The translations under genes were made by a program, and so were the position numbers. From Candidatus Latescibacterota bacterium (GTDB lineage: Bacteria > Latescibacterota > UBA2968), in assembly GCA_965204745.1 (NCBI GenBank), contig OZ242010.1, positions 2,176,001 through 2,240,000 of the forward strand: a DNA stretch of 64,000 bases, in the 5' to 3' direction. Shown here piece after piece: positions 10,181-53,200 of the stretch (within the stretch, counting starts at the first letter, position 1; each line of letters opens with the position of its first letter). The notes under the pieces are model-generated. The model had not been told where the DNA came from. It made no database searches and was given only the letters and a program-made list of their open reading frames with translations.

Positions 10181-10849
10181 TCAAACCGTGCCGACACCGC
10201 TTGGTGATCCACTGCGAGAAGCGGGTGCGACCGTGCCGGCTTTCCGCCGCATCCGCTCGAGAACGACGAGGTGACGCATCACCTCACAACTGATAAACTG
10301 GTACGCGTCGCGCCGCCTGTCCGGCAACTGCTCGGCGGGAAATCGAATGGGCTTGCCAAACCGCACTTGCAGCCGATCCATGCCGAGCATCGTCTTCCAG
10401 ATATTCACTGTGCCGGAAATGTACACGGGTATGACAGGGGCCTGTGTGCGATACACCAGCAGGCCGACCCCGGCCTTGGGGCGCAAGAACCCGGGGCCTT
10501 TGTTGCGCGTGCCTTCGGGAAAGATGAGCACCGGATTGCCACTTTGCAAAATTTTCGTCCAAGCCAACAATGCACTGCGGTCACTCCGCCGCCGATCAAC
10601 GGGCATCGCATGTAGCTTGCGAATCAACTTTCCCAACGCCGGAATCGCAAAGAGTTCGGCCTTGGCAAGATACCAAAGTTCGCGCCCTGTGGCAACCCCA
10701 ATCATGACGGGATCGACCAAAGAGCGATGATTGGCCGCCAAAATCACCGCGCCAGATCGGGGAATATGACGCCCCCCCTCAACGCGCAATCGAAACGCAC
10801 ACGCGACCAAAACGTACGCCAGCCACCAGCAATACCGATAAAATGTCAT
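10181..10849 (-). CDS. plsC: 1-acyl-sn-glycerol-3-phosphate acyltransferase
   Basis: NHRSLVD and FPEGTR motifs; ATGA overlap with the cmk stop. Confidence 0.88.
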   Translation of the reverse strand: MTFYRYCWWLAYVLVACAFRLRVEGGRHIPRSGAVILAANHRSLVDPVMIGVATGRELWYLAKAELFAIPALGKLIRKLHAMPVDRRRSDRSALLAWTKILQSGNPVLIFPEGTRNKGPGFLRPKAGVGLLVYRTQAPVIPVYISGTVNIWKTMLGMDRLQVRFGKPIRFPAEQLPDRRRDAYQFISCEVMRHLVVLERMRRKAGTVAPASRSGSPSGVGTV

Positions 10850-11529
10850 TCGCTTTGTCCCCGAGCGAGTGCCACAATCCGATTGACTTGTTCTTTGACC
10901 GACAGCCCCGTGGTGTCGATATGCACCGCATCGGGCGCGGGCCACGCGCTGCGTTGCAACTGGGTTTGCTCGTCTCGAGCATCGCGTGCGCGAATATCGG
11001 CCAGCAGCGATTCAAAATCAGCGGACTCGCCCGCACGTTCCAAGTCCCTGAGCCGGCGGCGTGCGCGTTCCGCAGGATCGGCAATCAGAAAAATTTTCAA
11101 TTCTGCATCAGGAAAAATCGCCGTGCCCGTATCCCTGCCCTCCAAAACGATGCCCCCGTCTTTGCCCATGTCCTGCTGTCGCGCAACGAGCACCTCGCGC
11201 ACCCCCGGATGGACGGCCACGCGAGACGCGGCCCGCGAAACTTCGGACGTGCGAATGGCCCTGGAAACATCTTCGCCATCGAGCAGGGTTTGCCCCTGCC
11301 CATCCCGCGTTTCAAACGCAATATCGAGCGCCCGGCCCAATGCGGCGACCCCCTCCGCGTCATCGAGATCGACCCCGCGCCGCAATGCCGCCAACCCCAC
11401 CGCGCGATACATGGTGCCAGTGTCCAAATACACATAACCCATTTTACGCGCCACGCGCCGCGCCGTCGTGCTCTTGCCAGATCCGGCCGGCCCATCTATC
11501 GCAATGACAATGCCATTTTTGCGTTTCAT
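10846..11529 (-). CDS. cmk: Cytidylate kinase
   Basis: IAIDGPAGSGKST, DTGTMYR, EGRDTG; cmk-plsC-rpsA gene order. Confidence 0.95.
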   Translation of the reverse strand: MKRKNGIVIAIDGPAGSGKSTTARRVARKMGYVYLDTGTMYRAVGLAALRRGVDLDDAEGVAALGRALDIAFETRDGQGQTLLDGEDVSRAIRTSEVSRAASRVAVHPGVREVLVARQQDMGKDGGIVLEGRDTGTAIFPDAELKIFLIADPAERARRRLRDLERAGESADFESLLADIRARDARDEQTQLQRSAWPAPDAVHIDTTGLSVKEQVNRIVALARGQSE

Positions 11530-11637
11530 CTGTAGATGCCTTTTTCATCTTCGGTCAGGTGAGAGGTGAGAGGCAAGACGGAAGACGGGAGATATAAGAG
11601 GGGAGAGGGTTTGTCAGTTCCAATTCATCCTCAAGTC

Positions 11638-11690
11638 GTCAGTTGTCAGCCGCCTCCCCCCATCACCCGTAGGGACAGGCCCCGTGCCTG
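11638..11690. repeat. Left arm of ~55-bp imperfect inverted repeat (REP-like, GTAG) flanking the HNH gene
   Basis: GTCAGTTGTCAG...GTAGGGACAGGCCCCGTGCCTG; reverse complement at 12583-12637. Confidence 0.7.
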
Positions 11691-11840
11691 GCGTCATTCA
11701 GCGATCAGCCTGGCGTCATTCTGACGAAATTATACCCCTGTATATTTTAGGCAAAATCCAGTGACTTTTGTCTTTCTCTCCTTTGCCTCTTGTATCTTTG
11801 GGCGAGCCGTGTGTAGGGGCAGCACCCCTACGTTTCTATC

Positions 11841-11905
11841 CTCGCCTCTTGCCTCTCACCTCTTGCCTCTCACCTCTTACCTCTTGCCTCTTACCTCTTA
11901 CCTCT
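11841..11905 (+). repeat. Heptamer tandem repeat (CCTCTTG/CCTCTCA/CCTCTTA)
   Basis: About nine 7-bp units; contains a 27/28 match to the reconstructed empty IS110 site. Confidence 0.9.
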
Positions 11906-12415
11906 CCCCGCTTGCCGCCTATGCTCTACCCGTCCAAACAACGGCAGATCTGCCCGTCCCGCGCTTTCTATCTTCTGGTGACACGACGGGCACAAGCTAA
12001 TCAAATTGCTCAGTTGATTGGCCTCTTGTGGCGAATCGAACAGCCGATACGGAACTTTGTGATGCACGTCCATCTGCCGCCCGAGTGCGTCTTCTGTTAT
12101 CCCGCACGCCACGCAACAAAACCCATCGCGTTCCCGCGCCAAGCCCGCCTGCGTCTTCCAATTTCCCCCGCGGTATTCGGGGCGACCTTCGAGCACGAGT
12201 TCAAACGCCTCATCGGCCTCCCAGTCGGCTCTGCACGTATTGTTGCAAAACTGCGCGTGCATACCCCGCTCAACGTACCAGCGCGGTTGGGCAAATCGCT
12301 TGCCACACTGCACGCACCGCACCGCGACCTGATCCTCGCGCCGAACTTGCCGCTCCTCATCGAACGCCAAGCGCATCTGCGGCGACGCGATTGCCGAATG
12401 CTTTCCGTCTGCCAT
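11891..12415 (-). CDS. HNH endonuclease with N-terminal Cys zinc finger
   Basis: CxxC...FCxxxC, then RERDGFCCVACG...VHH...N...NLISLCPSCH; GGAG RBS before ATG 12415. Confidence 0.85.
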   Translation of the reverse strand: MADGKHSAIASPQMRLAFDEERQVRREDQVAVRCVQCGKRFAQPRWYVERGMHAQFCNNTCRADWEADEAFELVLEGRPEYRGGNWKTQAGLARERDGFCCVACGITEDALGRQMDVHHKVPYRLFDSPQEANQLSNLISLCPSCHQKIESAGRADLPLFGRVEHRRQAGRGKR

Positions 12416-12582
12416 TGCTAACTCCATTGGTCAAATGAACGGGCTTAGAATATCGGCACGATTGCGAGAAATTGCAAGCGCACATTTTTGCGTTATGAGT
12501 AGGGTAGTGGTCATACCAAAGTAGTAATACGAATTGATTTGATATCGATCTATATGGACGCCTCAGTAGTCACTGCTTCGGA

Positions 12583-12637
12583 CAGGCACGGGGGCTATCC
12601 CTACGACTGATGGGGCGAGGTGGACTGACAACTGACA
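12583..12637. repeat. Right arm of the inverted repeat flanking the HNH gene
   Basis: Reverse complement GTAGGGATAGCCCCCGTGCCTG matches 11669-11690 at 20/22. Confidence 0.7.
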
Positions 12638-12873
12638 ATGCGAATTGAGAGTAGAAAGCGAGTAAGAAGCAAGCCGCAACCCATCATCCAAAGACATGAA
12701 CGGGGTTCTGTTGACATTTTGTGTTAGAGCGATGAGCGTGGCCGCAAAACAGAGAAAGCCTCGATCCTCGCCGCGCCACCGCGCCACCCGTGCGTCCCCG
12801 TCCCCACCCCACCCGTGTCTGAATCGCGGATTAAACGGATTACGCGGATTGCGCGGATTACCCCACACCGCCC

Positions 12874-13115
12874 TACCGCCATAGCCCTATCCCCCCGGCC
12901 CCCGTTATTCGCTTCGCTCATTGTAGGCTACGCCTGTGCCTACGCGGAAAGGGGGAGCGCATGGCTTTCTTGAAGGTTTGTATCCCTGGCTGTTTTGATG
13001 GCTTTGCGCGAATAGATCACGCTATGAACCCCAAAAAACCTCTACGCCATTCCCCTCGCAAAACCGCTCACAGTTCCCCCTTCCTCGCAGGAAGGGGGTT
13101 AGGGGGTAGGTCCCC
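12874..13115. repeat. ~240-bp MITE/REP-mosaic element, left arm of a long inverted repeat around the giant adhesin
   Basis: Reverse complement aligns to 21465-21820; built from CCCCTTCCT..AGGAAGGGG palindromes. Confidence 0.85.
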
Positions 13116-13228: not shown

Positions 13229-13312
13229 TTTACCCATTCGCTATTTCGATTTTGAGCGCGGAGGAAAAGCCGCGCCCGGTCTGTGCGACAGCTTTTGCAA
13301 AGGAGGCTCCAG

Positions 13313-16300
13313 ATGATCACCGCCATTTTCAGCCGCTGTTTGAACCTCATTTGGTGCTATGTTCCCACCGTGAAAAGTGGCGTTCATATCGCCCATTCTC
13401 GTCTTGATGTGTGGTTCTATTTCATTGCAAAACAATCTGTTAGGATGATCAGTACAGTGTACCCCCCCCCCCCCCCCCCCCCCCCTCTCGGAGAGGGGGA
13501 CAAAATGACGCCCCGCTACGCTCGCTTGTTGGCCCTGGTCGCGCTGGGCATGCTGGTGGCATCAGGGCCGGCTTTTGCCCAAACCGACTACGACTCGGAC
13601 AACGACGGCTACATTGATGTAGCCAACCTCGCACAGCTCAACGCCATTCGCTGGGATCTCAATGGCGATGGTGTTGTGTCGAGCACCGACTCTACAAACT
13701 ACTTCACCGCCTTCAGTAACCCCGCCTCGGGCATGGGGTGTCCGTCCTCCGGCTGTAATGGCTACGAACTGCTCAACAACTTGGACTTTGACGAGAACAA
13801 CGACAACTCAATCACCTCAGCAGACGCCACCTATTGGAACAACGGTGCCGGATGGCTACCCATAGGTGGTACCTACACGGGCAATTTCAAGGGCAACGGC
13901 TACACCATCGACAACCTGTTCATCAACCGTGGCTCCGCCAGCGCTATCGGACTGTTCTATCAATTTGGATCCAGCTCCCGCGTCGAAACCCTCGGCATCA
14001 TCAACGCCAATGTTACGTTAAAGAAATATGGCGGTATTCTGGTATACCAAAATTCCGGCACAATCGTCGCCTGCTACACCACCGGCACAGTGACGGGGGA
14101 AGAAAAAATTTCTGGATTAGTCGGCTGGGCTGGCACAGGAAGTATCTCAACTAGCTACTCCCATGCATCCGTTACAACCTCCACCAACGATAGCGATGTC
14201 GGCGGTTTGGTAGGCGAGATATGGGGCAATGCCATTATAAGAAATTCGTACTTCGCAGGTACCATCAACGGCACCAATTCCGCCGGCGGATTAGTCGGGG
14301 ACGAAGACGGAGGTAGCGCGTACGACAGCTACTGGGACTCCTCAAAAGCTTCAGGGACGATCCAACTGGGTAGCGGTCAGTCCACTACCACTCTCCAAGG
14401 TACCACCGGCTATACTGGCATCTACGCCAACTGGAACCTGGACTTGGATGGCAATACCAACACCGGCGATAGCCAAGGCAGAGACGATCCGTGGAACTTC
14501 GGCACCAGTAGCCAGTACCCGGTACTGAAGTACGTCGGTCCTTCCGCGGTAGTGATTGACCACGATGGCGATAACGATGGCCTGATTGACATCAAGACTT
14601 TGGCGCAACTCAACGCCATTCGCCACGACCTCAACGGCAATGGCGACGCTACCCACGCCGATTATGCCGCCGCCTTTCCCGGCCGAGTCACCACCAGTAG
14701 CGGCCGGATGGGTTGCCCGTCCGGGACCTGCACTGGCTACGAACTGCTCAACAACTTGGACTTTGACGAGAACAACGACGGCGCGATCACCCAAGCAGAC
14801 ACCACCTACTGGAATAGCGGTGCCGGCTGGGACCCTCTGGGGACTTACACCGGCACGTTCAAGGGCAACAACAAGACCATCTCCCACCTGTTCATCAACC
14901 GGGGGTCTCGGCATAATACAGGATTGTTCCAGGCGGTTGATGGCGATGTTTCGGGGTTGGGGTTGTTGAATGTGGATGTGACCGGCCGTGACCGCGTGGG
15001 TGGTCTGGCCGGTAATCAAGGTGGTGGGGGCACCATCTCGTCGTGTTATGTGACGGGTCGCGTTTCGGGGTCGAAGTGGGGTGTGGGTGGTTTGGTTGGT
15101 CGGTCTTTTCGCACTTCGGGCACCAACCGCATTGTGAGCAGCTATGCGAGAGTCTCTGTGCGCGTTCCTGCGTCTGTGACGAGTGGCGGGATGGCCGGCG
15201 GTTTGGTGGGTTGGCTGACCGATCAGACCGAGGTGGTGGCGTCTTACGCGATGGGCTCTGTGTTCGTGGGACACAGTAGCGGGGTGGGCGGTGGGTTGGT
15301 GGGTCAAATCGCGAGCGGCGGTGGCGTGACCGCGAGCTACTCGATAGGGCGGGTCACGGGTGCCGGCACGAAAGGCGGTTTGGTGGGTAGCATATCTGGC
15401 ACAGTGACCGATAGCTACTGGGACACGCAAGAAAGCGGCATTGCCGACGATGGCGATACTGTTGCGCCGGAGGGCAAGCTGATCTCCGACTTACAATCGG
15501 TCACGTCTGCGAGCGGCATCTATGCCAACTGGGACGATCTGACCATAGATGCTTCGGGGGCCAACGATGATGATCCCTGGACCTTTGGCACGACAAAGCA
15601 GTATCCGGTCTTGACGTTTGCCGACATGGACACCACGGTGCAATTCGCTATCCAACCTGTGCATTATGACACGGATAGCGACGGCCTCCTCGAGGTCTCG
15701 ACCTTGGCCCAACTGCATGCCATGCGCTGGGATCTCAATGGCGATGGGGTCGTCGCCGATAGTGATGCCATGACCTACAACGCCGCCTTTCCCAACGGGA
15801 ACTTGTCACGGAGCAAGGGGTGTCCTTCCACAGGTTGCATCGGCTACGAACTGCTCGCCAACCTGGACTTTGACACCTCCGGCGACGGAGAGATCACCTC
15901 AGCAGACGCCACCTACTGGAATGGCGGCGCCGGCTGGGCACCCATCGGCAGTAGCAACACCTCCCCATACACCGCCACGTTTGAGGGCAACGGCAAGACG
16001 ATCTCCCACCTGTACATCAACCGCTACGTCAACTTTTCGGGATTTTTCGCAAGCACGGATACCACTACCCACATTCGCTCTTTGGGGTTGGTCAACGCGG
16101 TGATCAATACGGGTCAGGGCACGGTGGGCGCGCTGGTGGGTCTGAACAAGGGTCGGATCGCGGCGAGTTACGTCACGGGGTCGGTCACGGCGAGCACCAA
16201 TGTCGGCGGGTTGGCGGGCGCCACTCAGAGGGGGTCGTACATCGTGGCGAGTTACGCCACGGCGTCTGTGGTGTGCAATCAGTCGGGGCCGTGGTCCACT

Positions 16301-19300
16301 GGCGGCGGGTTGGTAGGTGCCAATGGTCCGGGTGCGACGATCGCGTCGAGCTACTCAACAGGCTCAGTGACGGGGGCCTGCCTGCACAAGCATGGGCTGG
16401 CGGAAAACTCAGGTACAGTGACCGATAGCTACTGGGACACGCAAACAAGCGACATTGCCGATGATAGCGATACTGTTGCGCCGGAGGGCAAGTTGACCTC
16501 CGACTTACAATCGGTCACGTCTGCGAGCGGCATCTATGCCAACTGGGACGATCTGACCATAGATGCTTCGGGGGCCAACGATGATGATCCCTGGACCTTT
16601 GGCACGACGAATCAGTATCCGGCCTTGAAGTTTGCCGGCCTGGACACCACGGCGCAGTTCGCTACCCAACCCGTGCATTACGACACGGATAGCGATGGCC
16701 TCCTCGAGGTCTCGACCTTGGCCCAACTGCATGCCATGCGCTGGGATCTCAATGGCGATGGGGTCGTAGCCGATAGTGATGCCATGACCTACAACGCCGC
16801 CTTTCCCAACGGGAACTTGTCAGCGAGCAAGGGTTGCCCTTCCACAGGTTGCATCGGCTACGAACTGCTCAACAACTTGGACTTTGACGAGAACAACGAC
16901 GGCGCGATCACCCAAGCAGACGCCACCTACTGGAATAGCGGCGCCGGCTGGGACCCTGTGGGGCCTTACGGCGGCACATTCAAAGGCAACAACAAGACGA
17001 TCTCCCACCTGTTCATCAACCGGGGGTCTCGGCATAATACAGGATTGTTCCATGCGGTTGATGGCGATGTTTCGGGATTGGGGTTGTTGAATGTGAATGT
17101 GACCGGTGCTGACCGCGTGGGTGGTCTGGCCGGTAATCAAGGTGGTGGGGGCACCATCTCGTCGTGTTATGTGACGGGTCGCGTTTCGGGGTCGCGGTGG
17201 GGTGTGGGTGGTTTGGTTGGTCGGTCTTATCGCACTTCGGGCAGCAACCGCATTGTGAGCAGCTACGCGCTCGTCTCTGTGCGGGTTCCTGCACATGTGA
17301 CGAGTGACGGGCTGGCTGGCGGTTTGGTGGGTTGGCTGACCGATCAGACCGAGGTGGTGGCGTCTTACGCGCTGGGCTCTGTGTTCGCGGGACACAGCAG
17401 CGCGGTGGGCGGCGGGTTGGTGGGTCAAATCGCGAGCAACGCTGACGTGACAGCTAGCTACGCGATAGGACGGGTCACGGGTGCAGGCACGAAAGGCGGG
17501 TTGGTGGGCAGTTCGGCTGGTACAGTGACCGATAGCCACTGGGACACCTCCACCAGCGGGCAGACCACCAGTGCCGGCGGTAGCGGCGTTGTTGGCAAGA
17601 CGACTAGCGATCTCCTAAGCCCTACTACCTACGGTGCCACCGCCAACGACACCTACTACAACTGGAACGCCAACCTCGACGGACAACCCGGCAACGATGA
17701 TCCGTGGACCTTTGGCGCGATGGATCAGTATCCGGCCTTGAAGTATGCCGGCATGGACACCACCGCGCAATTTCAGCTTCAACCCGCGAGAGTGACGTTG
17801 ACCCTGATGCCCTCGTCGATCTCGGAAAGCGGCGGGATGGGCACTGTGACCGCGACGCTGGCACACCCGTTGAGCGCGGCAACGACGATCACGGTGCGCC
17901 CTGTGGCGGGTGCTTACACGGTGGGGTCGGATACGACGATCACCATCGCGGCCGGGAGCACTGCGAACGCGACGGATACGGTGGTCATCACAGCGGTGAA
18001 CAACACCCAAGACGAGCCTAATCGCGATGTGACCGTGTCCGTTGTGGCGGGCAACGCCCAAGGCGCGGGCAGTGTAACTGGTGCGACTTTGACGCTGGAG
18101 GACGACGACCCTGCACCGACAGCGACGTTGGCGGCGTCACCGGCGTCGATTTCGGAGAACGGCGCGGTTTCGACGATCACGGCGTCGCTATCGCGTCCAT
18201 CGAGCGCGGCGACGACGATCACGGTGCGCCCGGTGGCGGGTGCTTACACGGTGGGGGCGGATACGACGATCACCATCGCGGCCGGGGACACGATTAACGC
18301 GTCGGACACGGTGGTCATCACAGCGGTGAACAATACCCAAGACGCGCCTAATCGCGACGTGACCGTGCTAGGTGTGATGAGCAACACCCAAGGCGCGGGC
18401 AGTGTGACCGGTGCGGCTTTGACGCTGACGGACGACGACGTTGCGCCGGACGTGACGATGGTTTTGTCGCCTGCGTCGATTTCAGAGGACGGCGCGATTT
18501 CGACGGTGACCGCGACCCTGTCTCACACGTCGAGCGCGGCGACGACGATCACGGTTTCAGCGTCGGCTGTGTCGCCTGCGGTTCCGGGCGACTACATGCT
18601 GAGTACGCCGGCCACGCTGACCGTCGCGGCGGGCGCAACGACGAGCACGGGCACCGTGACGATCACGACGGTGGACAACAGCATATCTTCGGGGAACAAG
18701 ACGGTGACCGTGTCGAGCACGGTGGGCAACAGCATAGGCACGGGATCGGTCACTGATGCGACGCTGACGATTATCGATGACGAAGTGGCGCAGGTGACAT
18801 TGGTTTTGACTCCGGCGTCAATTACGGAGAATGCCCAGATTTCCACGATCACGGCGACGCTAGATCGCGTTGCAACCGTGGCGACGACGGTCACGGTTTC
18901 AGCGACCCCGGTGGCCCCTGCGGTTGCGGGCGATTTTACGCTATCGACCGCGACCACGCTGACCTTCGCGGCGAATGTGACGACGAGCACAGGCGCCGTG
19001 ACGATCACCTCGGTGAACGACACGACCGATGCGCCGGACAAGCGCGTGACCGTGTCTGCAACGGTGGCAGGTGGCAATGGGGCGTCGCTATCGTCTGCCG
19101 TGACCCTGACGATCACCGACGATGAGGCCGCGCCGGATGTGGCACTGACGCTGTCGCCCGCGTCGATTGCAGAGACCGGCGGTGTTTCGACGATCACGGC
19201 GACGCTGTCGCATCGGTCGAGCGCGGCGACGACGATCACAGTGCGCCCGGTGGCGGGTGCCTACACGGTGGGGATGGATTCGACGATCACCATCGCGGCT

Positions 19301-21211
19301 GGGAGCACGGCGAACGCGACGGACACAGTAGAGATCACGGCCGTGGACAACGCGACCGATGCGCCGAACAATTCCTTGACCGTGTCTGTTGCGGTGAGCA
19401 ATGACCAAGGCGCAGGCAACGTGACCGGCACGGCTTTGACGATCACAGACGATGACGCCGCGCCGGACGTGACACTAATGCTGTCGCCCGCGTCCATCTC
19501 GGAGGATGGCGGCGTGAGCACGGTGACGGCGACGCTGACACACCCATCGAGTGAGGCGACGACGATCACGGTGCGCCCGGTGGCGAATGCCTACACGGTG
19601 GGTTCGGATTCGACGATTACCATCGCGGCTGGGAGCACGGCGAACGCGACGGACACGGTGGCACTCACCGCCGTGGACAACGACATAGACGCATCAGACA
19701 ACGCGGTGATGGTGCAGACCGCCGCTGTGGAGAACGACCACGGCGCGGGCAACGTGCAGGCTACGTCGCTGACGATCACCGATGACGACGAGGCGGCGAT
19801 TGAGGTGTCGGCGATGACCACGACGACGGTCAGGCTCCACACGACAGAGTCGGGCAGGGCCGAGACCTTCACGGTCACGCTCGCCTCCGAGCCGACGGGG
19901 AACGTGGCCCTCTCGGTGGTCAGTTCAGACACGACGGAAGGCACTGTATCGCCCTCGGTGCTGACCTTCTCATCGACAACATGGAGCACGGCGCAAACCG
20001 TGACCGTGACCGGGCAGGACGATACTCCCGCCGCCGTCGATGGCAACCAGAACTATACGGTCACCCTTTCGGTGAACCAGACGGATACGCAGGACACCAA
20101 CTACGACGCGCTCACCGCGATCATCGTGTACATGGTCAACCGCGATAACGATTTCGGCTTGGACATAAGCGCGGTGACCGGGCAGGCCACAGAGGCCGGT
20201 GCCTCGGCGACCTTCACGGTGGCCCTGCTGACGCAACCCTCGGCGGCGGTAACGATTTCGGTGACGAGCCAAGACCCGAGCGAAGGGCGGGTTGAGCCTG
20301 CGATGCTGACCTTCGCGCCGACGAGCTATAACACGGCACAAACCGTGACCGTGACCGGGCAGGACGACATCATCGACGACGGGAACGTCACCTGGACGGT
20401 GCGACTCGCCCTATCAAGCGGCGATGCCAACTACAACACCCTTTCGGACGAGGATGTTCCGGTGACGACGACCGACGATGAAGATGCGCCGACCGTGACG
20501 TTGGTGCTCACACCCTCGTCCATCTCGGAAAACGGCGAGGTTTCCACGGTGAGCGCGACCCTATCGCATCCATCGAGCGGGATCACGACGATCACGGTCT
20601 CTGCTACGCCTGTGTCCCCTGCGACTGCGAGCGACTTCACGCTATCGAGTGCAGACACGCTGATCATCGCGGCGACGACCACAACGAGCACGGGCACCGT
20701 GACGATCACCGCAGAGGACAACAACGACCAGGCAGACGAGAAGATGGTCAGGGTGTCTGCAACCGCAAACAACGCCCAAGGCATCACCGATCCTTCGCCC
20801 GTGACCCTGACCCTGACCGATGACGAAACACCGAGTGCCAACTTGGATGTGGATGGCGATGGCCGGGTGAGATTGTTCTCGGATATAATCCTGGTCATTC
20901 GATACGTCCTCTTCTTCCGGGAAGAGGCCCTCCTCAGAGGGAACGTCATCGAGCCAACTGCCACGCGCACGACCGCTCAAGAAATTGAACCCTACCTCGA
21001 CACGTTGGTCAATCAGAACATTCTCGATGTGGATGGCGATGGCGATGTGAGGCTGTTCTCGGATATAATCCTGATCATTCGATATGTCCTCTTCTTCCGG
21101 AACGAGGCCCTCGTCAGAGGGAACGTCATCGAGCCAACTGCCACGCGCACGACCTCTCAAGCCATTGAACCCTACATCCGAAGCCTCTATCCCGCCTCCC
21201 ACTTCCAATGA
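13313..21211 (+). CDS. Giant secreted adhesin-like protein (GLUG/beta-helix repeats, Calx-beta/Ig-like Thr-rich repeats, duplicated dockerin-like DxDGDG domain)
   Basis: ATG 13313 has a perfect AGGAGG; the signal-peptide-like segment starts at ATG 13505 (MTPRYARLLALVALGMLVASGPAFA). VGGLVG motifs, TITDDD repeats and near-identical internal repeats at ~1.0 and ~2.1 kb spacing. Confidence 0.85.
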   Translation: MITAIFSRCLNLIWCYVPTVKSGVHIAHSRLDVWFYFIAKQSVRMISTVYPPPPPPPPLGEGDKMTPRYARLLALVALGMLVASGPAFAQTDYDSDNDGYIDVANLAQLNAIRWDLNGDGVVSSTDSTNYFTAFSNPASGMGCPSSGCNGYELLNNLDFDENNDNSITSADATYWNNGAGWLPIGGTYTGNFKGNGYTIDNLFINRGSASAIGLFYQFGSSSRVETLGIINANVTLKKYGGILVYQNSGTIVACYTTGTVTGEEKISGLVGWAGTGSISTSYSHASVTTSTNDSDVGGLVGEIWGNAIIRNSYFAGTINGTNSAGGLVGDEDGGSAYDSYWDSSKASGTIQLGSGQSTTTLQGTTGYTGIYANWNLDLDGNTNTGDSQGRDDPWNFGTSSQYPVLKYVGPSAVVIDHDGDNDGLIDIKTLAQLNAIRHDLNGNGDATHADYAAAFPGRVTTSSGRMGCPSGTCTGYELLNNLDFDENNDGAITQADTTYWNSGAGWDPLGTYTGTFKGNNKTISHLFINRGSRHNTGLFQAVDGDVSGLGLLNVDVTGRDRVGGLAGNQGGGGTISSCYVTGRVSGSKWGVGGLVGRSFRTSGTNRIVSSYARVSVRVPASVTSGGMAGGLVGWLTDQTEVVASYAMGSVFVGHSSGVGGGLVGQIASGGGVTASYSIGRVTGAGTKGGLVGSISGTVTDSYWDTQESGIADDGDTVAPEGKLISDLQSVTSASGIYANWDDLTIDASGANDDDPWTFGTTKQYPVLTFADMDTTVQFAIQPVHYDTDSDGLLEVSTLAQLHAMRWDLNGDGVVADSDAMTYNAAFPNGNLSRSKGCPSTGCIGYELLANLDFDTSGDGEITSADATYWNGGAGWAPIGSSNTSPYTATFEGNGKTISHLYINRYVNFSGFFASTDTTTHIRSLGLVNAVINTGQGTVGALVGLNKGRIAASYVTGSVTASTNVGGLAGATQRGSYIVASYATASVVCNQSGPWSTGGGLVGANGPGATIASSYSTGSVTGACLHKHGLAENSGTVTDSYWDTQTSDIADDSDTVAPEGKLTSDLQSVTSASGIYANWDDLTIDASGANDDDPWTFGTTNQYPALKFAGLDTTAQFATQPVHYDTDSDGLLEVSTLAQLHAMRWDLNGDGVVADSDAMTYNAAFPNGNLSASKGCPSTGCIGYELLNNLDFDENNDGAITQADATYWNSGAGWDPVGPYGGTFKGNNKTISHLFINRGSRHNTGLFHAVDGDVSGLGLLNVNVTGADRVGGLAGNQGGGGTISSCYVTGRVSGSRWGVGGLVGRSYRTSGSNRIVSSYALVSVRVPAHVTSDGLAGGLVGWLTDQTEVVASYALGSVFAGHSSAVGGGLVGQIASNADVTASYAIGRVTGAGTKGGLVGSSAGTVTDSHWDTSTSGQTTSAGGSGVVGKTTSDLLSPTTYGATANDTYYNWNANLDGQPGNDDPWTFGAMDQYPALKYAGMDTTAQFQLQPARVTLTLMPSSISESGGMGTVTATLAHPLSAATTITVRPVAGAYTVGSDTTITIAAGSTANATDTVVITAVNNTQDEPNRDVTVSVVAGNAQGAGSVTGATLTLEDDDPAPTATLAASPASISENGAVSTITASLSRPSSAATTITVRPVAGAYTVGADTTITIAAGDTINASDTVVITAVNNTQDAPNRDVTVLGVMSNTQGAGSVTGAALTLTDDDVAPDVTMVLSPASISEDGAISTVTATLSHTSSAATTITVSASAVSPAVPGDYMLSTPATLTVAAGATTSTGTVTITTVDNSISSGNKTVTVSSTVGNSIGTGSVTDATLTIIDDEVAQVTLVLTPASITENAQISTITATLDRVATVATTVTVSATPVAPAVAGDFTLSTATTLTFAANVTTSTGAVTITSVNDTTDAPDKRVTVSATVAGGNGASLSSAVTLTITDDEAAPDVALTLSPASIAETGGVSTITATLSHRSSAATTITVRPVAGAYTVGMDSTITIAAGSTANATDTVEITAVDNATDAPNNSLTVSVAVSNDQGAGNVTGTALTITDDDAAPDVTLMLSPASISEDGGVSTVTATLTHPSSEATTITVRPVANAYTVGSDSTITIAAGSTANATDTVALTAVDNDIDASDNAVMVQTAAVENDHGAGNVQATSLTITDDDEAAIEVSAMTTTTVRLHTTESGRAETFTVTLASEPTGNVALSVVSSDTTEGTVSPSVLTFSSTTWSTAQTVTVTGQDDTPAAVDGNQNYTVTLSVNQTDTQDTNYDALTAIIVYMVNRDNDFGLDISAVTGQATEAGASATFTVALLTQPSAAVTISVTSQDPSEGRVEPAMLTFAPTSYNTAQTVTVTGQDDIIDDGNVTWTVRLALSSGDANYNTLSDEDVPVTTTDDEDAPTVTLVLTPSSISENGEVSTVSATLSHPSSGITTITVSATPVSPATASDFTLSSADTLIIAATTTTSTGTVTITAEDNNDQADEKMVRVSATANNAQGITDPSPVTLTLTDDETPSANLDVDGDGRVRLFSDIILVIRYVLFFREEALLRGNVIEPTATRTTAQEIEPYLDTLVNQNILDVDGDGDVRLFSDIILIIRYVLFFRNEALVRGNVIEPTATRTTSQAIEPYIRSLYPASHFQ
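13462..13485 (+). repeat. Poly-C(24) homopolymer
   Basis: 24 consecutive C, in frame as a poly-Pro run between the two ATGs. Confidence 0.9.
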
Positions 21212-21464: not shown

Positions 21465-21820
21465 GGACCTACCCCCCTAACCCCCCTTCCTGCGAGGAAG
21501 GGGGGAACGGTGAGCGGTTTTGCGAGGGGAATGGCGATAGGTTTTTTGGGGTTCATTGATCCATTCGCTCAAAGCCATCAAAACAGGCCTGGATGCAAAC
21601 CTTTCAGAAAGCCATGCGCTCCCCCTTTCCTTGTAGGAAAGGGGGCCGGGGGGATAGGTCGCATTTTCATGGCATGATCCATTCGCGCAAAGCCATCAAA
21701 ACAGCCAGGGATACAAACCTTCAAAAAGCCATGTGCTCCCCCTTTCCTTGTAGGCACAGGCGTAGCCTACAATGAGCGAAGCGAATAACGGGGGCCGGGG
21801 GGATAGGTCTCTATGGCGGG
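21465..21820. repeat. Right arm of the long inverted repeat, with an internal ~120-bp duplication
   Basis: Inverted match to 12874-13115; the GATCCATTCGC..AAAGCCATCAAAACAG block occurs twice. Confidence 0.85.
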
Positions 21821-21902
21821 GGATGCGAAGGACACAGCGGAGTGGGAACGATGAAGCGGTGGTAGGGTGGTGGGTGGCTCTCACCTCTTGTATGTTGTCA
21901 GA

Positions 21903-22110
21903 AAGGGTTAATTTAGGTGTTGCGCCCTCGCATCGAGACACGCCATCTTGATGCCCTGCTCGGGGAAGGCCGGCGCCTCTTGAAGGCTATGACCTTGTAA
22001 GTAAGATAGGCCCCCCGACCGCCGAGTTGATACCGAAGAGTATCTAAGTCCATTGAGGCTGCATATACAAGACCGGTAGACTGGGCAAACAGTCGGGACG
22101 CGAACCCGAG
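21903..22110 (+). ncRNA. Predicted bridge RNA of the IS110 element (ends approximate)
   Basis: Target loop: GGCGCCTCT (21972-21980) and AAGTAAG (21999-22005). Donor loop: AGAGTATCT (22037-22045) and ATACAAG (22065-22071). Each loop is closed by stems. Confidence 0.85.
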
Positions 22111-22154
22111 CGCACACCAGACCCCTTCCCCACCCCTCATCACAGGAGGCCCCG

Positions 22155-23162
22155 ATGTCGAACACTCAACCCGCTTTTGCCGGCATTGATGTCAGTGCCC
22201 ACACGTTGTCCGTTGCCCTGTCCAGACCCGGACAAGGGGTCATGCAAGCCACCTTTGACAACGCGCCTCGGGCGCACAAGCACCTGTTGAAGTGGCTCAC
22301 CAAGGGCGGGCGCATGGTCTCGGTCTGTCTCGAAGCGACCGGGCGTTATAGCTTGGGGGTGGCCTTGGCCTTGCATCAGCATCGCTGCACGCAGGTCATG
22401 GTCGTCAATCCCAAAGCGATGAGCAAGTACGCTCAAGCCTGCATGCAACGGGCAAAGACAGATGCGAAGGATGCGTTGTTGATCCTCGATGATGCCGAGC
22501 GCATGCCCTTTGTGCCTTGGCAAGTGCCGAGCGAGCACGTCCTGCAACTGCAAACGCTGACCAGACGCATTGACCAACTCAAACAGGAGGTCAGCCGCGA
22601 ACAGAACCGGCACCACGCGCAGGACTACCCCGTCAAGCGTGCCCGCCTCATCACACGCGATATTCAGGTGAATATTCGACACCTCAAACGCCGCATTGCC
22701 TACTTGGAAGACCAAGCCCTCAAACTCGTTTTGCAGGACGAGACCCAAAAGCGTGCCTACCAGCACCTCTGCTCGGTGCCCGGTATCGCCCAAACGAGTG
22801 CCTTGCGGCTCTTGGCCGAGCTGGCCTCCTTGCCAGACGGGATGGAACCGCCCCAATGGGTCGCTCATGCAGGCCTGGATCCCAAACCCAAACAATCCGG
22901 GATGGCCAACCCGGAAAGACGCATCTCGAAAACCGGAAATAAATATCTCCGCCATGCCCTCTACATGCCTGCTTGGGTGGCCTGCAGGCACGAAGTCCAT
23001 GTCAAAGCCTTTTATGACAAACTCATCGCCAGGGGCAAGAAACCTTTGCAGGCTATCGTTGCGGTGATGCGAAAGTTGCTCCATTCGATCTGGGGCATGT
23101 TGCGGCATGACCAAGATTTTGAGGGCGAGAAATTCTATCGAATCACCCCGAAAACCCCTTGA
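22155..23162 (+). CDS. IS110 family recombinase/transposase
   Basis: RuvC-like DEDD residues (GIDVS, LEATG, KTDAKDA), SVPGI, catalytic KQSG, GNKYLR; AGGAGG RBS. Confidence 0.95.
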   Translation: MSNTQPAFAGIDVSAHTLSVALSRPGQGVMQATFDNAPRAHKHLLKWLTKGGRMVSVCLEATGRYSLGVALALHQHRCTQVMVVNPKAMSKYAQACMQRAKTDAKDALLILDDAERMPFVPWQVPSEHVLQLQTLTRRIDQLKQEVSREQNRHHAQDYPVKRARLITRDIQVNIRHLKRRIAYLEDQALKLVLQDETQKRAYQHLCSVPGIAQTSALRLLAELASLPDGMEPPQWVAHAGLDPKPKQSGMANPERRISKTGNKYLRHALYMPAWVACRHEVHVKAFYDKLIARGKKPLQAIVAVMRKLLHSIWGMLRHDQDFEGEKFYRITPKTP

Positions 23163-23438
23163 CCTTTTAAGAGAGTATCTTACTTCTTGCCTCTTACTCG
23201 GGGATAGGGCTTGCGGTGGGGCGGTGATGGGATGGGCACGCATGGGCGGCAGGGCATGCGAAGGACATAGCGGTGGGGAACGATGAAGCGGTGGTGGGGA
23301 TGCGGGGTAATCCGCGTAATCCCCTAATCCGTTTAATCCGCGATTCTCCGCCTTTGACCTTGACACGCAACATAGCGATTCCGATATTGGACGCAACAGA
23401 GGTTTGTCGAACAATTTACAACGCACTTGGAGCGCGCT

Positions 23439-32527: not shown

Positions 32528-32664
32528 TAAGAGGCAAGACGTAAGACGTAAGACGTAAGACGTAAGACGCAAGACGCAAGACGTAAGACGCAAGACGCAA
32601 GACGCAAGACGCAAGACGTAAGACGTAAGACGTAAGACGTAAGACGCAAGACGTAAGACGTAAG
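32528..32664 (+). repeat. Heptamer VNTR: TAAGAGG followed by (YAAGACG) x18
   Basis: Units counted directly from 32535 to 32660. Confidence 0.95.
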
Positions 32665-41375: not shown

Positions 41376-44300
41376 TCAGCCTCCAGTGCCGAATTGGTCG
41401 GTGAGGATCTGGCCATCGGAAAATCCAATTTCGCCATCGCTGTCGAGATCGTACCGCGCATCGTACTCCGCATCGCCTCGGCGCGTCCCATACTTAAAAA
41501 TAAAGGCTATGAAGTCGGCAAAATTAACCTGACCATCGCCATTGAAGTCGGCGGTCGGTTGTTGCACTTCAAGGGTGAACGTCAGCGAGGCGAAATCGCC
41601 ATCTGCATCAAACGCCGACAAGGTGTATTCGGTCTCGGTCATCACCTTGCTCGGCGTGCCGGAGATCGTGTGCGTGGCCGAGTCGAATCGCAATCCCTTC
41701 GGTAGGATCGGCAGTAGGATATAGACCAGCGTGCCATCGCCACCGGTGGCTTCGGGCAGGGTCATGCGGACATTGCCCCCGATGAAGTAGCGTTGCGCGG
41801 CAACCCGTGTCCCATCGCCAAAGGCAGGCAGTCGGTCCGCTATGACCGCGAGCGTGAAGGTCAATGTCGTCGCATCGCCATCTGTATCGGTTGCAGTTAG
41901 CGTGTATTCGGTTTCGTCCATTATCTCGCCCGGCGTGCCAGACAGTTCCCGCGTTGTCGCGTCAAAGGTCAGTCCCGATGGCAGAGCGGGCGTTAGGGCG
42001 TAGGTCAGTGCCTCATCGCCGCCGGTTGCCTGCGGCAAGGTGATGTTGATGGCTGTCCCTGTCCGATAGCGTTGCGCGGTGACTGTTGAACCCTTGAAGG
42101 ATGGCAGATAGTCTGGGGTGGGGTCGGGCGGGGCAGGCGGATCAGGCGGGGGCGGCGAGGGCGGTCTGTCACTGGGCGTCCCCGTTACGCCCACCGAGGG
42201 TTGCCCATCGTCGGCGTTGGTCAGGGTGGCGATGACGCGCACAGTGTATTCCGTGCCCGCGGTCAGACCGGCGATTGTCGCACTCGTCTTGCCACCGTTG
42301 TCGATGACTTGCTGACGGTCAGAGGCGTACAACGCATCCCCGGATTTCCACTGCACTTTGTAACCGGTCGCCCCGTTCACCGCATCCCACGACACGCCCA
42401 AATAGCCCTCGCCGGGCGCGACTGTCACACCCGTCACTTGCCCCGGTTCTGTCACCACTGTGACCGGCCCCGTCCCCTGCGCGGCTGTCACGGTGAAGGT
42501 CACGGACTTGTCAATATCCGCGACGTCGATAATTGCCTTAACTGTATTCGCGCCCGCAGTACCCAGGGTCAACCTCGTCGAGGCGCGCCCATTGGCATCG
42601 GTGGTATCGGTTGTGGTACTGAGCGAGCCACCGCCCGCCGTGACCGAAAAAGTGACCGGCACCCCGGCAAAGGCAACATCGTTCTGATCCCGCACTTCAA
42701 CGATGAACGGATCGGACAGGCGAGAACCAGCCGTGCCGGTTTGGTCATCGCCCGAGATTTTTACCAAACTGGCCAAGGTGCGGGAAGAGTAGCCGTAGTC
42801 TACAAAAACGCCTCGGCTCCCTAGATCCGAGATGTAGGTAGCGCGAGAAAGATAGTTTAAGGGATTACCCGTAAGCTCTATCCGTCTCAGGCTGGTTAAG
42901 CCCAACAGGGCTGAGATATCCGAGATGTTGTTTTCTTGACAATATAACCGGATCAAGCTAGTGAGACCCCGAAGCGGCGAGATATCCGAGATACGGTTTT
43001 TGTCAATATCCAGCTCTTTCAGGCTGGTTAAGCCCGACAAGGCCGAGATATCAGAGATGCGGTTGCTTTCAAGAGACAGCGTTGTCAGGCTGGTTAAGCC
43101 CGACAAGGCCGAGATATCAGAGATGTTGTTGTTGTAAAGCCACAGCCTTGTCAGGCTGGTTAAGCCCGACAAGGCCGAGATATCAGAGATATCAGAGATG
43201 CCGCTGCTGAAAAGCCACAGCGTTGTCAGGCTGGTTAAGCCCGACAAGGCCGAGATATCAGAGATGCCTCTGCTACTAAGACTCAGAAATGTCAGGCTGG
43301 TTAAGCCCGACAGGGCCGAGATATCAGAGATGCGCCAGTTGTAGGCAAGAGCCAGATGTGTCAGGCTAGTTAAGCCCGACAGGGCCGAGATATCAGAGAT
43401 GCGGTTGCCGGAAAGACCCAGATATTCCAGGCTAGTTGCATGCTCCAGCCCGGTCAAATCACCTATGCGTAAAGCCGGATCATCATCAAAGTGGAACAAG
43501 TCAAGGCGGGTCAGGGTCGCCATCTCACTTGGGGTAATGATCGCACCGCTCGATTTTTTTAGTGCGCTCTCAATGGCAGCACGCAAGTTGGCGTCGGGAA
43601 TGTTCACGTCGCGCACAACGGTCACTGTGTAGGTTTTCGTCGTCGTCCCATCTTCTGCTGTGACCACTATGGTAATGGGATTTTCGCCCACACTGAGGGA
43701 AATGGCACTGCTCGCACTGCCACTCGATACCGAAGTGCCGTTCACCGTGATCGTGGCACCGTCGTAATTGCTCGTCGGCATAATGGTCAGGCTGTCGATG
43801 CTGTGCGCCACGGTCGCCGTGTAGGAGAGAGAGTCATACACAAAGGCAGGAACCAGCGTCCCTGCCGAGAGGGTCAAGCCGATCAGGTCCGCTGTCCCAC
43901 CTGTTGCCGTGGTGAAGGTCACGGACTTGTCAATGCCCGAGACGTCGATAGCTGCTACAACCGTGTCCGCGCCCACAGTCCCCAGCGTCAACCTCGTCGA
44001 GGCGCGCCCATTGGCGTCTGTGGTATCGGTTGTGGTACTGAGCGACCCTCCGCCCGCCGTGACCGAAAAAGCGACCAGCACCCCGGCAAAGGCAACGTCG
44101 TTCTGATCCCGCACTTCAACGATGAGCGGATCGGACAGGCGATCAGTGCTACTGGTTATTTGGTCATCGCCCGAGATTTTTACCAAACTGGTCAAGGTGC
44201 GGGGAATATAGTATACATTGACGCCTCGGCTCTGGAGAGCCGGGATATGGGTAGCGAGGGAAGGATAGTTCAATAAATTATAATGAATCTCCAGACTTGT

Positions 44301-50245: not shown

Positions 50246-53200
50246 TGGAAGTGGGAGGCGGGATAGAGGCTTCGGATGTAGGATTCAATATCTTGCGGGG
50301 TCGTGCGCGTGGCATCTGAAGAGACAGCACGATTGATGAGGGCCTCTTCCCGGAAGAAGAGGACGTATCGAGTGATCAGGATGATATCCGAGAACAGTTC
50401 CACCTCGCCATTGCCATCCACATCGAGAATTTTCTGATCGACCAAAATGGCGATGTAGGATTCAATGTCTTGCGGGGTCGTGCGCGTGGCATCTAAAGAG
50501 ACAGCACGATTGATGAGGGCCTCTTCCCGGAAGAAGAGGACGTATCGAGTGATCAGGATGATATCCGAGAACAGTTCCACCCGGCCATTGCCATCCACAT
50601 CCAAGTTGGCACTCGGTGTGTCGTCATCGGTCAGGGTCACGGGCGAGGGAGGCGAGGTCGTTCTGGCACTGGGCGTCCCCGTCACGCCCACCGAGGGCGG
50701 GCCATCGTCGGCATTGGTTAGGGTGGCGATGACGCGCACAGTGTATTCCGTGCCTGCGGTCAGACCGGCGATTGTCGCACTCGTCTTACTGCCGTTGTCG
50801 ATGATTTGCTGACGGTCAGATGAGTACAACGCCTCCCCGGATTTCCACTGCACTTTGTAACCGGTCGCCCCGTTCACCGCATTCCACGACACGCCCAAAT
50901 AGCCCACGCCGGGCGTGACTTCCACACCCGTCACTTGCCCCGGTTCTGTCACCACTGTGACCGGTCCCGTCCCCTGCGCGGGCGTCACGGTGACCGATCC
51001 CGTCGTCAAGTCCTCGCTACCAGAATGGGCCGCGGCCTTCACGGTCACGCGCAAACTCTGATTCGCGTCAAAACCCAACCCGGTATAAGCGAGCGTCAGT
51101 TGGGCGACGGTGGCGGAGGTTCTGACAGGCGTACCGCTGATGCTCGCGCCCTGCGGTGCGGTGTGCAATGCGAAGTGGTTGGCGGCGAGGGTCTCGTTGT
51201 AGGTGGCACCGGTCAGGGTGATGTTGACTTTTGCCCCGTCGAGATTGGTTTCTGTCAGCGCGTCCGGAACCGTCGATGATATCGCTACCCCCTCTGCCGT
51301 GGCGGTGAAGGTCACGGACTTGTCAATGTTCGAGACGTCGATAGCTGCTACAACCGTGTCCACACCCGCAGCACCCAGCGTGTCGGCACCCGTAGCACCT
51401 AGCGTCAACCTTGTCGAGGCACGCCCGTTGGCATCGGTGGTATCGGTTGTGGTACTGAGCGACCCACCGCCCGCCGTGACCGAAAAAGCGACCGGCACCC
51501 CGGCAAAGGCGACGGCGTTCTGATCCCGCACTTCAACGATGAACGGATCGGACAGGCGAGAACTAGCAGTGCCGGTTTGGTCATCGCCCGAGATTTTTAC
51601 CAAACTGGTCAAGGTGCGGGTATCGTAGCGTACATCAACGCCTCGGCTCTGGAGAGCCGGGATATGGGTAGCGAGGGAAGGATAGTTCAAGGGATTACCC
51701 GTAAGCCACAGACCGGTCAGGCTGGTTAAGCCCGACAAGGCCGAGATATCAGAGATGTTGTTGCTTCTAAGAAACAGACCGGTCAGGCTGGTTAAGCCCG
51801 ACAAGGCCGAGATATCAGAGATGCGGTTGGTGTCAAGATACAGAAATGTCAGGCTGGTTAAGCCCGACAAGGCCGAGATATCAGAGATGTTGTTGCTTCC
51901 AAGATACAGACGGGTCAGGCTAGTTAAGCCCGACAAGGCCGAGATATCAGAGATGCGGTTGGTGGAAAGACCTAGATCGGTCAGGTAGGTTAAGCCCGAC
52001 AAGGCCGAGATATCAGAGATGCGGTTGGTGGAAAGACGCAGATCGGTCAGGCTGGTTAAGCCCGACAGGGCCGAGATATCAGAGATACGGTTGTCGGAAA
52101 GATCCAGAAATATCAGGCTGGTTAAGCCCGACAAGGCCGAGATATCAGAGATGCGGTTGTCGGAAAGATGCAACGCACTCAAGCTGGTTAAGCCGGATAG
52201 CGGCGAGACATCCGAGATGCTTAAGTTGCTGTTAAGATTCAGATCTCTCAGGTTGGTTAAGTTGGATAGCGGCGAGACATCCGAGATGTTGCTACCGGAA
52301 AGATCTAGAAATGTCAGGCTGGTTAAGCCCGACAAGGCCGAGATATCCGAGACGCTGTTGCTGTCAAGATTTAGCGTTGTCAGGCGGGTTGCATGCTCTA
52401 GCCCGGTCAAATCACTAATGTTCTGACTCACAGCAACAAGGCGGGTCAGGGTCGCCATCTCACTTGGGGTAATGATCGCACCGCTCGATTTTTTCAGTGC
52501 GCCCTCAATGGCAGCACGCAAGTTGGCGTCGGGGATGTTCACGCCGCGCACAACGGTCACTGTGTAGGTTTTCGTCGTGGTCCCATCTTCTGCTGTGACC
52601 ACAATGGTAATGGTGTTTTCGCCCACACTGAGGGAAATGGCACTGCTCGCACTGCTGCTCGATACCGAAGTGTCGTTCACCGTGATCGTGGCGCCGTTGT
52701 AACTGCTCGTCGGCGTGACGGTCAGGCTGTCGATGCTGTCCGCCACGGTCGCCGTGTAGGAGAGAGAATCACGGGCGAAGGCCGGATCCAGCGTCCCTGC
52801 CGAGAGCGTCAGGCCGCTCAAATCCGCATCGCTTGAGGTCCTACCTGTTGCCGTGGCGGTGAAGGTCACGGACTTGTCAATGTCCGAGACGTCGATAGCC
52901 GCTACAACCGTGTCCACACCCGCAGCACCCAGCGTGTCGGCACCCGTAGCACCTAGCGTCAACCTCGTCGAGGCACGCCCGTTGGCATCGGTTGTATCGG
53001 TTGTGGTACTGAGCGACCCACCGCCCGCCGTGACCGAAAAGGCGACCAGCACCCCGGCAAAGGCGACGTCGTTCTGATCCCGCACTTCAACGATGAGCGG
53101 ATCGGACAGGCGAGAACCAGCAGTACCGGTTTGGTCATCGCCCGAAATTTTTACCAAACTGGTCAACGTGCGGGTATCGTAGCTTACACCAACGCCTCGG

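Follow-up and report, generated by a model that had tools for sequence, protein, structure and literature searches.

A 28-bp sequence at positions 11867-11894 of a 64,000-bp stretch of the genome of a Candidatus Latescibacterota bacterium (contig OZ242010.1, positions 2,176,001 to 2,240,000; this whole stretch is called the window, and coordinates are those of the window unless given as genome positions) closely resembles the site that is rebuilt when the flanks of an insertion sequence (IS) lying 10 kb away are joined. An earlier note on this DNA regarded the sequence as the empty copy of the IS target. The question raised by the locus is whether it is a vacant target equal to the occupied one, and so a probable place for the next insertion or rearrangement, and what determines where this IS inserts.

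The flagged sequence lies within an intergenic heptamer microsatellite

When the IS flanks (21878-21888 and 23181-23197) were joined and compared with the flagged 28-mer, CTCTCACCTCTTACCTCTTGCCTCTTAC, 27 of the 28 positions were identical, as had been claimed, with the sole difference at position 15 (C at the flagged site, T in the rebuilt one). Using Tandem Repeats Finder, the array around the flagged site was placed at 11845-11905, with a period of 7, 8.7 copies and the consensus CCTCTTA, while a regular-expression scan placed the same (CCTCTYR)n array at 11845-11907, with nine units. The array is intergenic, lying between cmk (10846-11529, minus strand) and an ORF for an HNH endonuclease (11891-12427, minus strand) whose stop overlaps the end of the array, as found by Pfam searches of the neighboring ORFs.

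The genome consists of one contig of 5,482,115 bp with 56.5% G+C. A search of it with the rebuilt 28-mer gave no exact match, eight sites with at most one mismatch, 25 with at most two and 86 with at most three, and the motif CRCCTCTTAC was found 137 times, where base composition predicts 21. The 27/28 match is therefore far beyond expectation from base composition, yet within expectation from the genome's own repeats. Contigs of the public assemblies of four of 15 runs (X10, X12, X1 and X5) were placed on 11000-12900, and none spans the array: pieces of an X10 contig end at 11846 and restart at 11894, those of X1 end at 11870 and restart at 11879, and depth within the array is inflated by other arrays.

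The insertion sequence is a typical IS110-group element

The IS at the nearby site (Table 1) has noncoding ends of 266 nt on the left (21889-22154) and 18 nt on the right (23163-23180). Its recombinase has DEDD RuvC-like and serine Tnp domains (Pfam PF01548, E value of 1.4e-24, residues 9-155; PF02371, E value of 3.1e-19, residues 203-287) and aligns end to end with the transposases of IS621 (E value of 3e-32) and ISCro4 (E value of 2.2e-35) in the PDB. Residues D12 (in GIDVS), E60 (CLEATG), D103 and D106 (KTDAKDA) and the SG of KQSGM align with D11, E60, D102, D105 and S241-G242 of IS621, the roles of which have been described (PMC11208158).

Every full-length copy in the genome starts with TGTAT and finishes with GTATCT, has a left flank ending in CCTCT and a right flank of the form T/C-R-CC, and shares a CT core between the flank and the IS end. 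Beyond the shared TCT(T), no duplication was found at the 52 insertion sites; IS110 elements insert without target duplication. A paralogous empty copy of the module that flanks the window IS runs without a gap over the join at genome positions 3459712/3459713, and the IS ends proposed in the earlier note are correct. Because TCTT occurs at both junctions, the ends can be placed by sequence only to about 4 bases. The cut adopted in the earlier note falls directly after the CT core, the position at which the top strand is cleaved by the enzyme of IS621 (PMC11208158). Both Pfam domains, the catalytic residues, the shared short core and the combination of a long left end with a short right end were all found, a long left end that carries an RNA having been described for the group (PMC11208160), and on these features the element at 21889-23180 is a typical IS110-group member.

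The 52 copies comprise 15 distinct sequences, one present 30 times, one eight times and one twice, with 12 singletons. An abundant (main) subfamily accounts for 45 copies; the subfamily of the window copy has five members that are 94.8 to 100% identical to each other and approximately 88.7% identical to the main group. That 30 copies are identical points to recent expansion of the main subfamily in a burst. The five window-subfamily copies, by comparison, show only 94.8 to 99.8% identity; this subfamily is older and sparser, although the window copy has an intact ORF and intact guides. At one locus (L031, genome positions 1121591-1124180), v0 and v1 copies of different subfamilies lie head to tail with a single heptamer unit, TACCTCT, between them.

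An orthologous pre-insertion site was sought in 12 genomes of the same genus (approximately 81 to 83% identical in the downstream gene), and none crossing the insertion point was present among the matches listed; the flanks of the window IS are themselves high-copy repeats. Immediately left of the IS, 260 bp (21629-21888) form a mosaic of high-copy dispersed repeats that gives 589 blastn HSPs in the genome, and the best-covered stretches, including the part that contains CCTTGTAGGCACAGGCGTAGCCTACAATGAGCGAAGCGAATAACGGGG, are present in about 160 to 300 copies.

Table 1. Features of the flagged array and of the IS110-group element in the window (a slash marks the insertion junction)
Feature	Position	Strand	Basis or remark
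Heptamer microsatellite (CCTCTYR), 9 units	11845..11907	+	Tandem Repeats Finder; regular expression; Pfam of neighboring ORFs
Flagged 28-mer	11867..11894	+	27/28 to the joined IS flanks
CT core of near-cognate junction CACCT-CT/TACCT	11876..11877	+	Per-junction guide scores
Left half of the short module holding the window copy, GGTAGGGTGGTGGGTGGCTCTCACCTCT	21860..21888	+	Sequence comparison
IS110-group insertion sequence, 1292 bp, one of 52 full-length copies	21889..23180	+	blastn against the genome
Predicted target-binding domain: outer stem, internal loop, inner hairpin	21960..22018	+	RNAalifold, 13 left ends from 4 genomes; pair counts
Left target guide CGCCTCT	21974..21980	+	Equals top strand of left flank plus core; G.T at own flank CACCTCT
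Right target guide AAGTAAG	21999..22005	+	Reverse complement of core plus right flank, CTTACTT
Predicted donor-binding domain	22020..22087	+	RNAalifold; pair counts
Left donor guide AGAGTATCT	22037..22045	+	Matches the terminal 9 nt at the IS right end exactly
Right donor guide ATACAAG	22065..22071	+	Reverse complement of CTTGTAT, i.e., CT plus the first 5 nt of the IS
Recombinase gene, 335 aa, intact	22155..23162	+	Pfam PF01548 and PF02371; PDB matches
Candidate -35 TTGACC in the right end	23159..23164	+	Read by eye
Right half of the same module, TACTTCTTGCCTCTTACTCGGGGATAGGGCTTGCGG...	23181..23220	+	Common to all 5 window-subfamily copies

Insertions are concentrated in the heptamer arrays

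Once the IS had been deleted in silico, 47 of the 52 sites were found to lie in arrays of at least three heptamer units and 51 in arrays of at least two, the single site scored as having none (genome position 5200241) being the product of a 1-nt registration offset. Of all oriented positions, 0.25% lie in such arrays, as do 1.3% of CT dinucleotides and 21% of CCTCT sites. The view that the target is a multicopy heptamer repeat is thus strongly supported. The earlier note had taken a lack of enrichment in the repeats, relative to random intergenic CT sites, as the result that would speak against it, and the enrichment is clear.

The left end is predicted to encode a bridge RNA whose guides read the target

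Left ends were aligned first among the 15 variants of this genome and then as a set of 13 from four genomes. In the main subfamily, the segment GGCCGG-CCCCTCT-TGAAGG contains the top strand of the left flank plus core, and a second segment, CCTTGTA-GGTAAG-ATAGG, carries the reverse complement of CTTACC. The corresponding guides of the window subfamily are CGCCTCT and AAGTAAG, and its flanks are CRCCTCT and CT plus TACTT. The layout described for a bridge RNA (PMC11208160) is the same, with left guides in the sense of the top strand, right guides antisense and the core present in all four.

RNAalifold gave two domains, each of a stem, an internal loop and a hairpin, with the four guide segments located in the loops. 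When the guides are kept out of any helix, 97.4% of 416 cells (four helices, 32 pairs) can pair, against 30 to 49% when the partners are slid, and compensatory changes occur in four pairs, three of them among the 14 outer-stem pairs of the donor domain; these pair statistics are derived from the same 13 closely related left ends as the structure itself, are biased towards it and are to be read as supportive rather than independent. The fold of a single left end is not unusually stable (z score of -1.0) and pairs part of the left target guide. A scan of 21700-23400 against Rfam 15 returned no relevant family, the five matches (E values of 2.4 to 9.7) all being far below gathering scores. We predict that the left end encodes a bridge RNA of two loops; its synthesis and its binding to the recombinase we infer from the homology to IS621. 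On a circular junction of the right and left ends, the candidate -35 TTGACC would stand 18 nt upstream of TATGTT (candidate -10, 21891-21896), or 17 nt in copies with one T fewer, as read by eye, an arrangement that resembles the junction promoter described for IS110 elements (PMC11208160).

Guides and flanks change together

The guides of each copy were compared with that copy's own flanks over 7 plus 7 nt. Perfect agreement was found in 23 of the 52 copies, a further 16 differ only by A-to-G changes opposite a guide U (U.G wobble) and in two more the sole departure is a G.T wobble, with A replacing G opposite a guide G, so that 41 copies are fully paired when wobble is allowed. The singleton v14 has both guides changed (TCCCTCT and GGTGAG), and its flanks are exactly TCCCTCT/CACCT; in v5, the left target guide is TGCCTCT and the flank is TACCTCT. 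Joint change of guide and flank was found across four guide classes in this genome and three more in relatives, always at the two loop positions.

Approximately 10 of the 52 copies do not fit their own guides. Four main-guide copies have two left-flank mismatches (TACCTCT) and three copies have two or three right-flank mismatches, two of these at CTCCCGT. The apparent misfit at genome position 5200241 is a 1-nt registration slip of the extraction, the flank as read by eye ending in CTCTCCCCTCT. A chimeric copy, v8 (genome positions 602782-604074, L025), has a left end like that of the window subfamily and is otherwise like the main group; its flanks, TCCCTCT/CACCT, fit the guides of v14 and not its own; gene conversion between copies or an RNA acting in trans might explain this. 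More generally, the misfit insertions may represent one-arm "half-match" events, guidance in trans by the RNA of another copy, or later slippage or recombination. Off-target half-match insertion has been reported for IS621 (10.64898/2026.08.31.748434), and the handful of insertions here that fit only one target arm resemble that class.

Occupancy follows the fit to the guide

The 12-mer that is the Watson-Crick match to the main guide, CCCCTCT/TACCT, was found occupied at 20 sites and empty at five, and for the U.G wobble 12-mer, CCCCTCT/TGCCT, the counts were 16 occupied and 65 empty (Fisher odds ratio of 16, P = 7e-8 between the two). Counted for the main group as defined by identity (n = 46, v14 included) and with wobble allowed, full matches to the main guide were occupied at 37 sites and empty at 91, whereas single-mismatch sites were occupied once and empty 675 times. 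Among generic junctions NNCCTCT/TRCCT, the main-guide copies occupy 36 of the CC class (70 empty) and four of the TA class (136 empty), and none of the CA, TG and CG classes (84, 289 and 60 empty, respectively). The window guide's own match, CGCCTCT/TACTT, was occupied twice and empty 25 times, or three and 53 times when G.T was allowed. Occupancy of the sites by insertions follows guide fit.

The flagged junction is a near match to both guides

The flagged junction, CACCTCT/TACCT, differs from the main guide by one mismatch, at the second base of the left word, and from the guide of the window copy by two strict mismatches, or one if G.T is allowed. The G.T pair is also present at the window copy's own occupied site, the left half CACCTCT being identical at the two. 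The mismatch that remains places A opposite C at the sixth base of the core plus right flank, within the 7 nt addressed by the right target guide, and it is this base that separates the guides of the two subfamilies (G in GGTAAG, A in AAGTAAG) and their flanks.

Eight sites match the rebuilt 28-mer at 27 of 28 positions, and the flagged site is the only one of them in which the mismatch is at position 15. Over 120 ungapped positions, the context of the flagged site is identical to that of the real insertion site at 46, compared with 81 to 103 in six other 27/28 sites, all of which are copies of a short module, ...GCGGTAGGGYGGTGGGYGGNTCTCRCCTCT/TACTTCTTGCCTCTTACTTGGGGATAGGGCTTGCGG.... Thirty-seven empty sites elsewhere in the genome fit CRCCTCT/TACTT exactly, 11 of them in the module and none within the window. 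Two marks of a cognate target, pairing of all 12 guide-addressed bases and paralogy extending beyond the repeat units, are both absent from the flagged site.

The flagged sequence could still be read as a true empty copy, equal to the occupied site and hence the likely place of the next insertion or rearrangement. The 27/28 match and the shared left half are in keeping with such a reading, as is the half-match insertion reported for IS621 (10.64898/2026.08.31.748434); moreover, v7, the most diverged copy of the window subfamily, sits at CGCCTCT/TACCT, so the right-flank mismatch of the flagged site is tolerated at least sometimes. We nevertheless consider the reading quite improbable. The mismatch affects one of the 7 nt addressed by the right target guide; apart from the heptamers, the surroundings bear no relation to those of the occupied site; 37 other sites are better fits to the guide; single-mismatch sites of the main guide are almost all empty; and the class to which the flagged junction belongs, CACCTCT/TRCCT, is empty throughout for main-guide copies. 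The claim that 11867-11894 is the empty copy of the target is thus overstated. We conclude that the flagged junction, which misses each guide program by one base, is a near-cognate, low-probability landing site. The true "empty twins" of the window insertion are copies of the module elsewhere, such as that at genome position 3459702 (L030). The flagged site may still receive an insertion or recombine, though the chance for any single site is low. It has hundreds of fellow near matches, and nothing suggests that it stands apart from them.

Heptamer arrays and the IS in related genomes

Tandem Repeats Finder returned 1,762 rows for the genome, 606 of them with a period of 7. After merging, 262 arrays were of the CT type (15,070 bp) and 325 belonged to a second family with the unit ACTGACH (14,664 bp). 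No IS copies were seen within the ACTGACH arrays (CNACTGA in another register; e.g., 12624-12638). Counts of array and IS orientation per twelfth of the chromosome gave no obvious replication-strand pattern.

To compare genomes of the order, a 26-nt CT-type pattern was counted: it occurs 443 times in this genome (G000), 204 times in G052 and zero or one time in each of the other 51. The ACTGACH pattern, with 897 occurrences in this genome, was found 15 to 45 times in four relatives of the genus, one to three times in six further genomes and not in G052, the range over the other 52 order genomes being 0 to 45 matches each. The IS itself was identified in three of the 52 other order genomes: G052 (18 matches), G048 (8 matches) and G021 (3 matches; 52% protein identity). 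In G052, the guides are CTCGCCTCT and GGGAG and the copies lie in heptamer arrays at CTCGCCTCT/CCCGT; in G048, the guide is AGAAAAG and the flanks are ...CCCCT/TTTCT; and in G021, the guides are ATTGCGCAT and GACGTTAG and the flanks are ...GCGCAT/AACGTT. In two G048 copies (L012 and L026, two of the six fetched), the right ends read ...GAGTTTCT and the donor guide is still GAGTATCT, a mismatch between donor and guide.

A one-gene tree (ribosomal protein S1, 21 genomes of the genus) gave (G048,(G000,G052)), with support of 100/100 and 99/97. The IS is confined to one three-species clade, and CT-type arrays with heptamer-reading guides are confined to one sister pair, so the association of the two is a single co-occurrence that carries no statistical weight. 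This bears on the proposal that the element itself makes or spreads the CT-type arrays, through abortive or half-match strand transfers, the flagged array then being a by-product. The proposal would account for the abundance of CT-type arrays in only those two of the 53 order genomes that have heptamer-reading guides, and for G048, which has the IS with other guides and no array matches. The sister relationship (99/97) reduces this pattern to one event, however, and there are 262 arrays against 52 IS copies. The unrelated ACTGACH family reached 325 arrays without an IS and occurs at a low level in eight of 20 other genomes of the genus; IS110 insertion leaves no target duplication, none being seen here beyond the shared core; and heptanucleotide microsatellites have been reported to be the commonest class of long simple sequence repeat in most genomes surveyed (PMC4679880). 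We regard the proposal as very unlikely. The simplest reading is that the guides have been tuned to an intergenic repeat that happens to be abundant in the host, as described for IS110 elements and REP sequences (PMC11208160); long heptanucleotide repeats are known in some bacterial genomes (PMC4679880).

Several other repeats were observed in the window and the genome. A 19-unit TAAGACG array at 32528-32664 (CGTCTTR on the minus strand) is a CT-type variant outside both guide classes. A 9-mer tandem repeat (GTAATCCGC or CGCGGATTA) lies beside heptamer modules at 12825-12861 and 23307-23342, and 93 occurrences of the word GTAATCCGCG were counted genome-wide. The palindrome GCGATCGC (the HIP1 octamer) occurs five times, against about 130 by a rough estimate from base composition, and its scarcity suggests avoidance, perhaps connected with a restriction system. 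A cyanobacterial origin, which the heptamer arrays had brought to mind, was set aside in view of the five HIP1 occurrences. An ORF of 2,642 amino acids (13283-21211) contains internal 330-bp tandem repeats, and its last 1.2 kb, with the adjoining downstream DNA, has at least eight paralogous copies in the genome at 89 to 97% identity. Runs of a repeat with a 66-bp period lie at 42978-45108, 51708-52370, 53257-53794, 56223-56665 and 58199-58675; at a guess, these are coding repeats resembling leucine-rich repeats.

A probably RNA-guided element with a microsatellite target

Taken together, the flagged 28 bases are very probably one junction in a host (CCTCTYR)n microsatellite, the arrays of which serve as landing pads for a bridge-RNA-guided, 52-copy IS of the IS110 group. 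The approximately 260 arrays would be natural landing pads, with the target chosen by a bridge RNA from the 266-nt left end. Its 7-nt left guide would read the site by repeating the top strand of the left flank plus CT core and its 7-nt right guide by complementing the core plus five right-flank bases, while a second pair of segments would do likewise for the joined ends of the element. The window copy (CGCCTCT, AAGTAAG) would be programmed for CRCCTCT/TACTT, found chiefly in a three-unit module, ...GGTGGGYGGNTCTCRCCTCT/TACTTCTTGCCTCTTACTTGGGG..., and the abundant subfamily (CCCCTCT, GGTAAG) for CCCCTCT/TRCCT. That the protein instead reads the target directly, the guides being a coincidence of a left end as pyrimidine rich as the arrays, might be argued from an RNA that is predicted and whose single-sequence fold is not significantly stable, yet it is hardly credible given that guides and flanks change together in seven classes (four here, three in relatives) at the two loop positions, that the donor guides match the element's own ends and that the protein is homologous to two bridge recombinases with solved structures.

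The bridge-RNA reading makes the element an ordinary IS110 element with an unusual target, a microsatellite. It is like IS621 of Escherichia coli (PDB 8wt6) in its two Pfam domains, aligned catalytic residues, CT core and long left and short right ends, in a two-loop RNA with a top-strand left guide and a complementary right guide (PMC11208160), and in targeting a multicopy intergenic repeat. It is unlike IS621 in that a heptamer microsatellite, each array of which offers several candidate junctions, takes the place of the REP palindrome targeted by IS621; the right guide pairs over 7 nt natively here, compared with 4 bp natively, extendable to 7, in IS621 (PMC11208160); and several guide alleles coexist in one genome here. 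Among solved structures, the best match is the ISCro4 transposase (PDB 9t56; E value of 2.2e-35, residues 7-326). ISPpu9 (PMC12288879) and ISPpu10 (10.64898/2026.03.19.712850) of Pseudomonas putida are described as IS110-family elements with all copies in one conserved intergenic repeat; by those descriptions, their targets are REP or conserved intergenic sequences and not tandem heptamers.

The arrays themselves are like the TAACTGA arrays of marine Beggiatoaceae, which are intergenic tandem heptamers at hundreds of loci, ACTGACH being CNACTGA-like (PMC4679880), and are unlike them in the sequence of the CT-type unit, CCTCTYR. A term search of PMC4679880 gave no link between heptamer repeats and an insertion sequence, the word "transposase" occurring in it 0 times. 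Among the papers listed by a limited search of the literature, none joins IS110 elements and heptamer repeats, a result that bears only weakly on novelty.

The homology to IS621 further suggests that the element may be active now. Copy-and-paste routes of transposition have been argued in preprints (10.1101/2025.10.25.684509 and 10.64898/2026.08.31.748434), and such a route would suit a 52-copy family. Slippage in a microsatellite target can add or remove landing sites. The IS and the arrays that it enters might be evolving together, with slippage making and destroying the 12-nt target words and the IS splitting into at least four guide alleles in this genome, all of them exploiting different sub-variants; the allele with most copies is near exhaustion of its perfect sites (20 of 25). 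We consider this unlikely. In its boldest form, if true, half-match recombinase events would contribute to seeding or reshaping the arrays, which would account for CT-type arrays being abundant only in two sister genomes with matching guides.

The 52 insertions and several guide alleles of this one genome are a natural data set on bridge-RNA specificity, in which occupancy falls in steps from 80% of sites with a Watson-Crick match to 20% with a U.G wobble and to well under 1% with a single mismatch.
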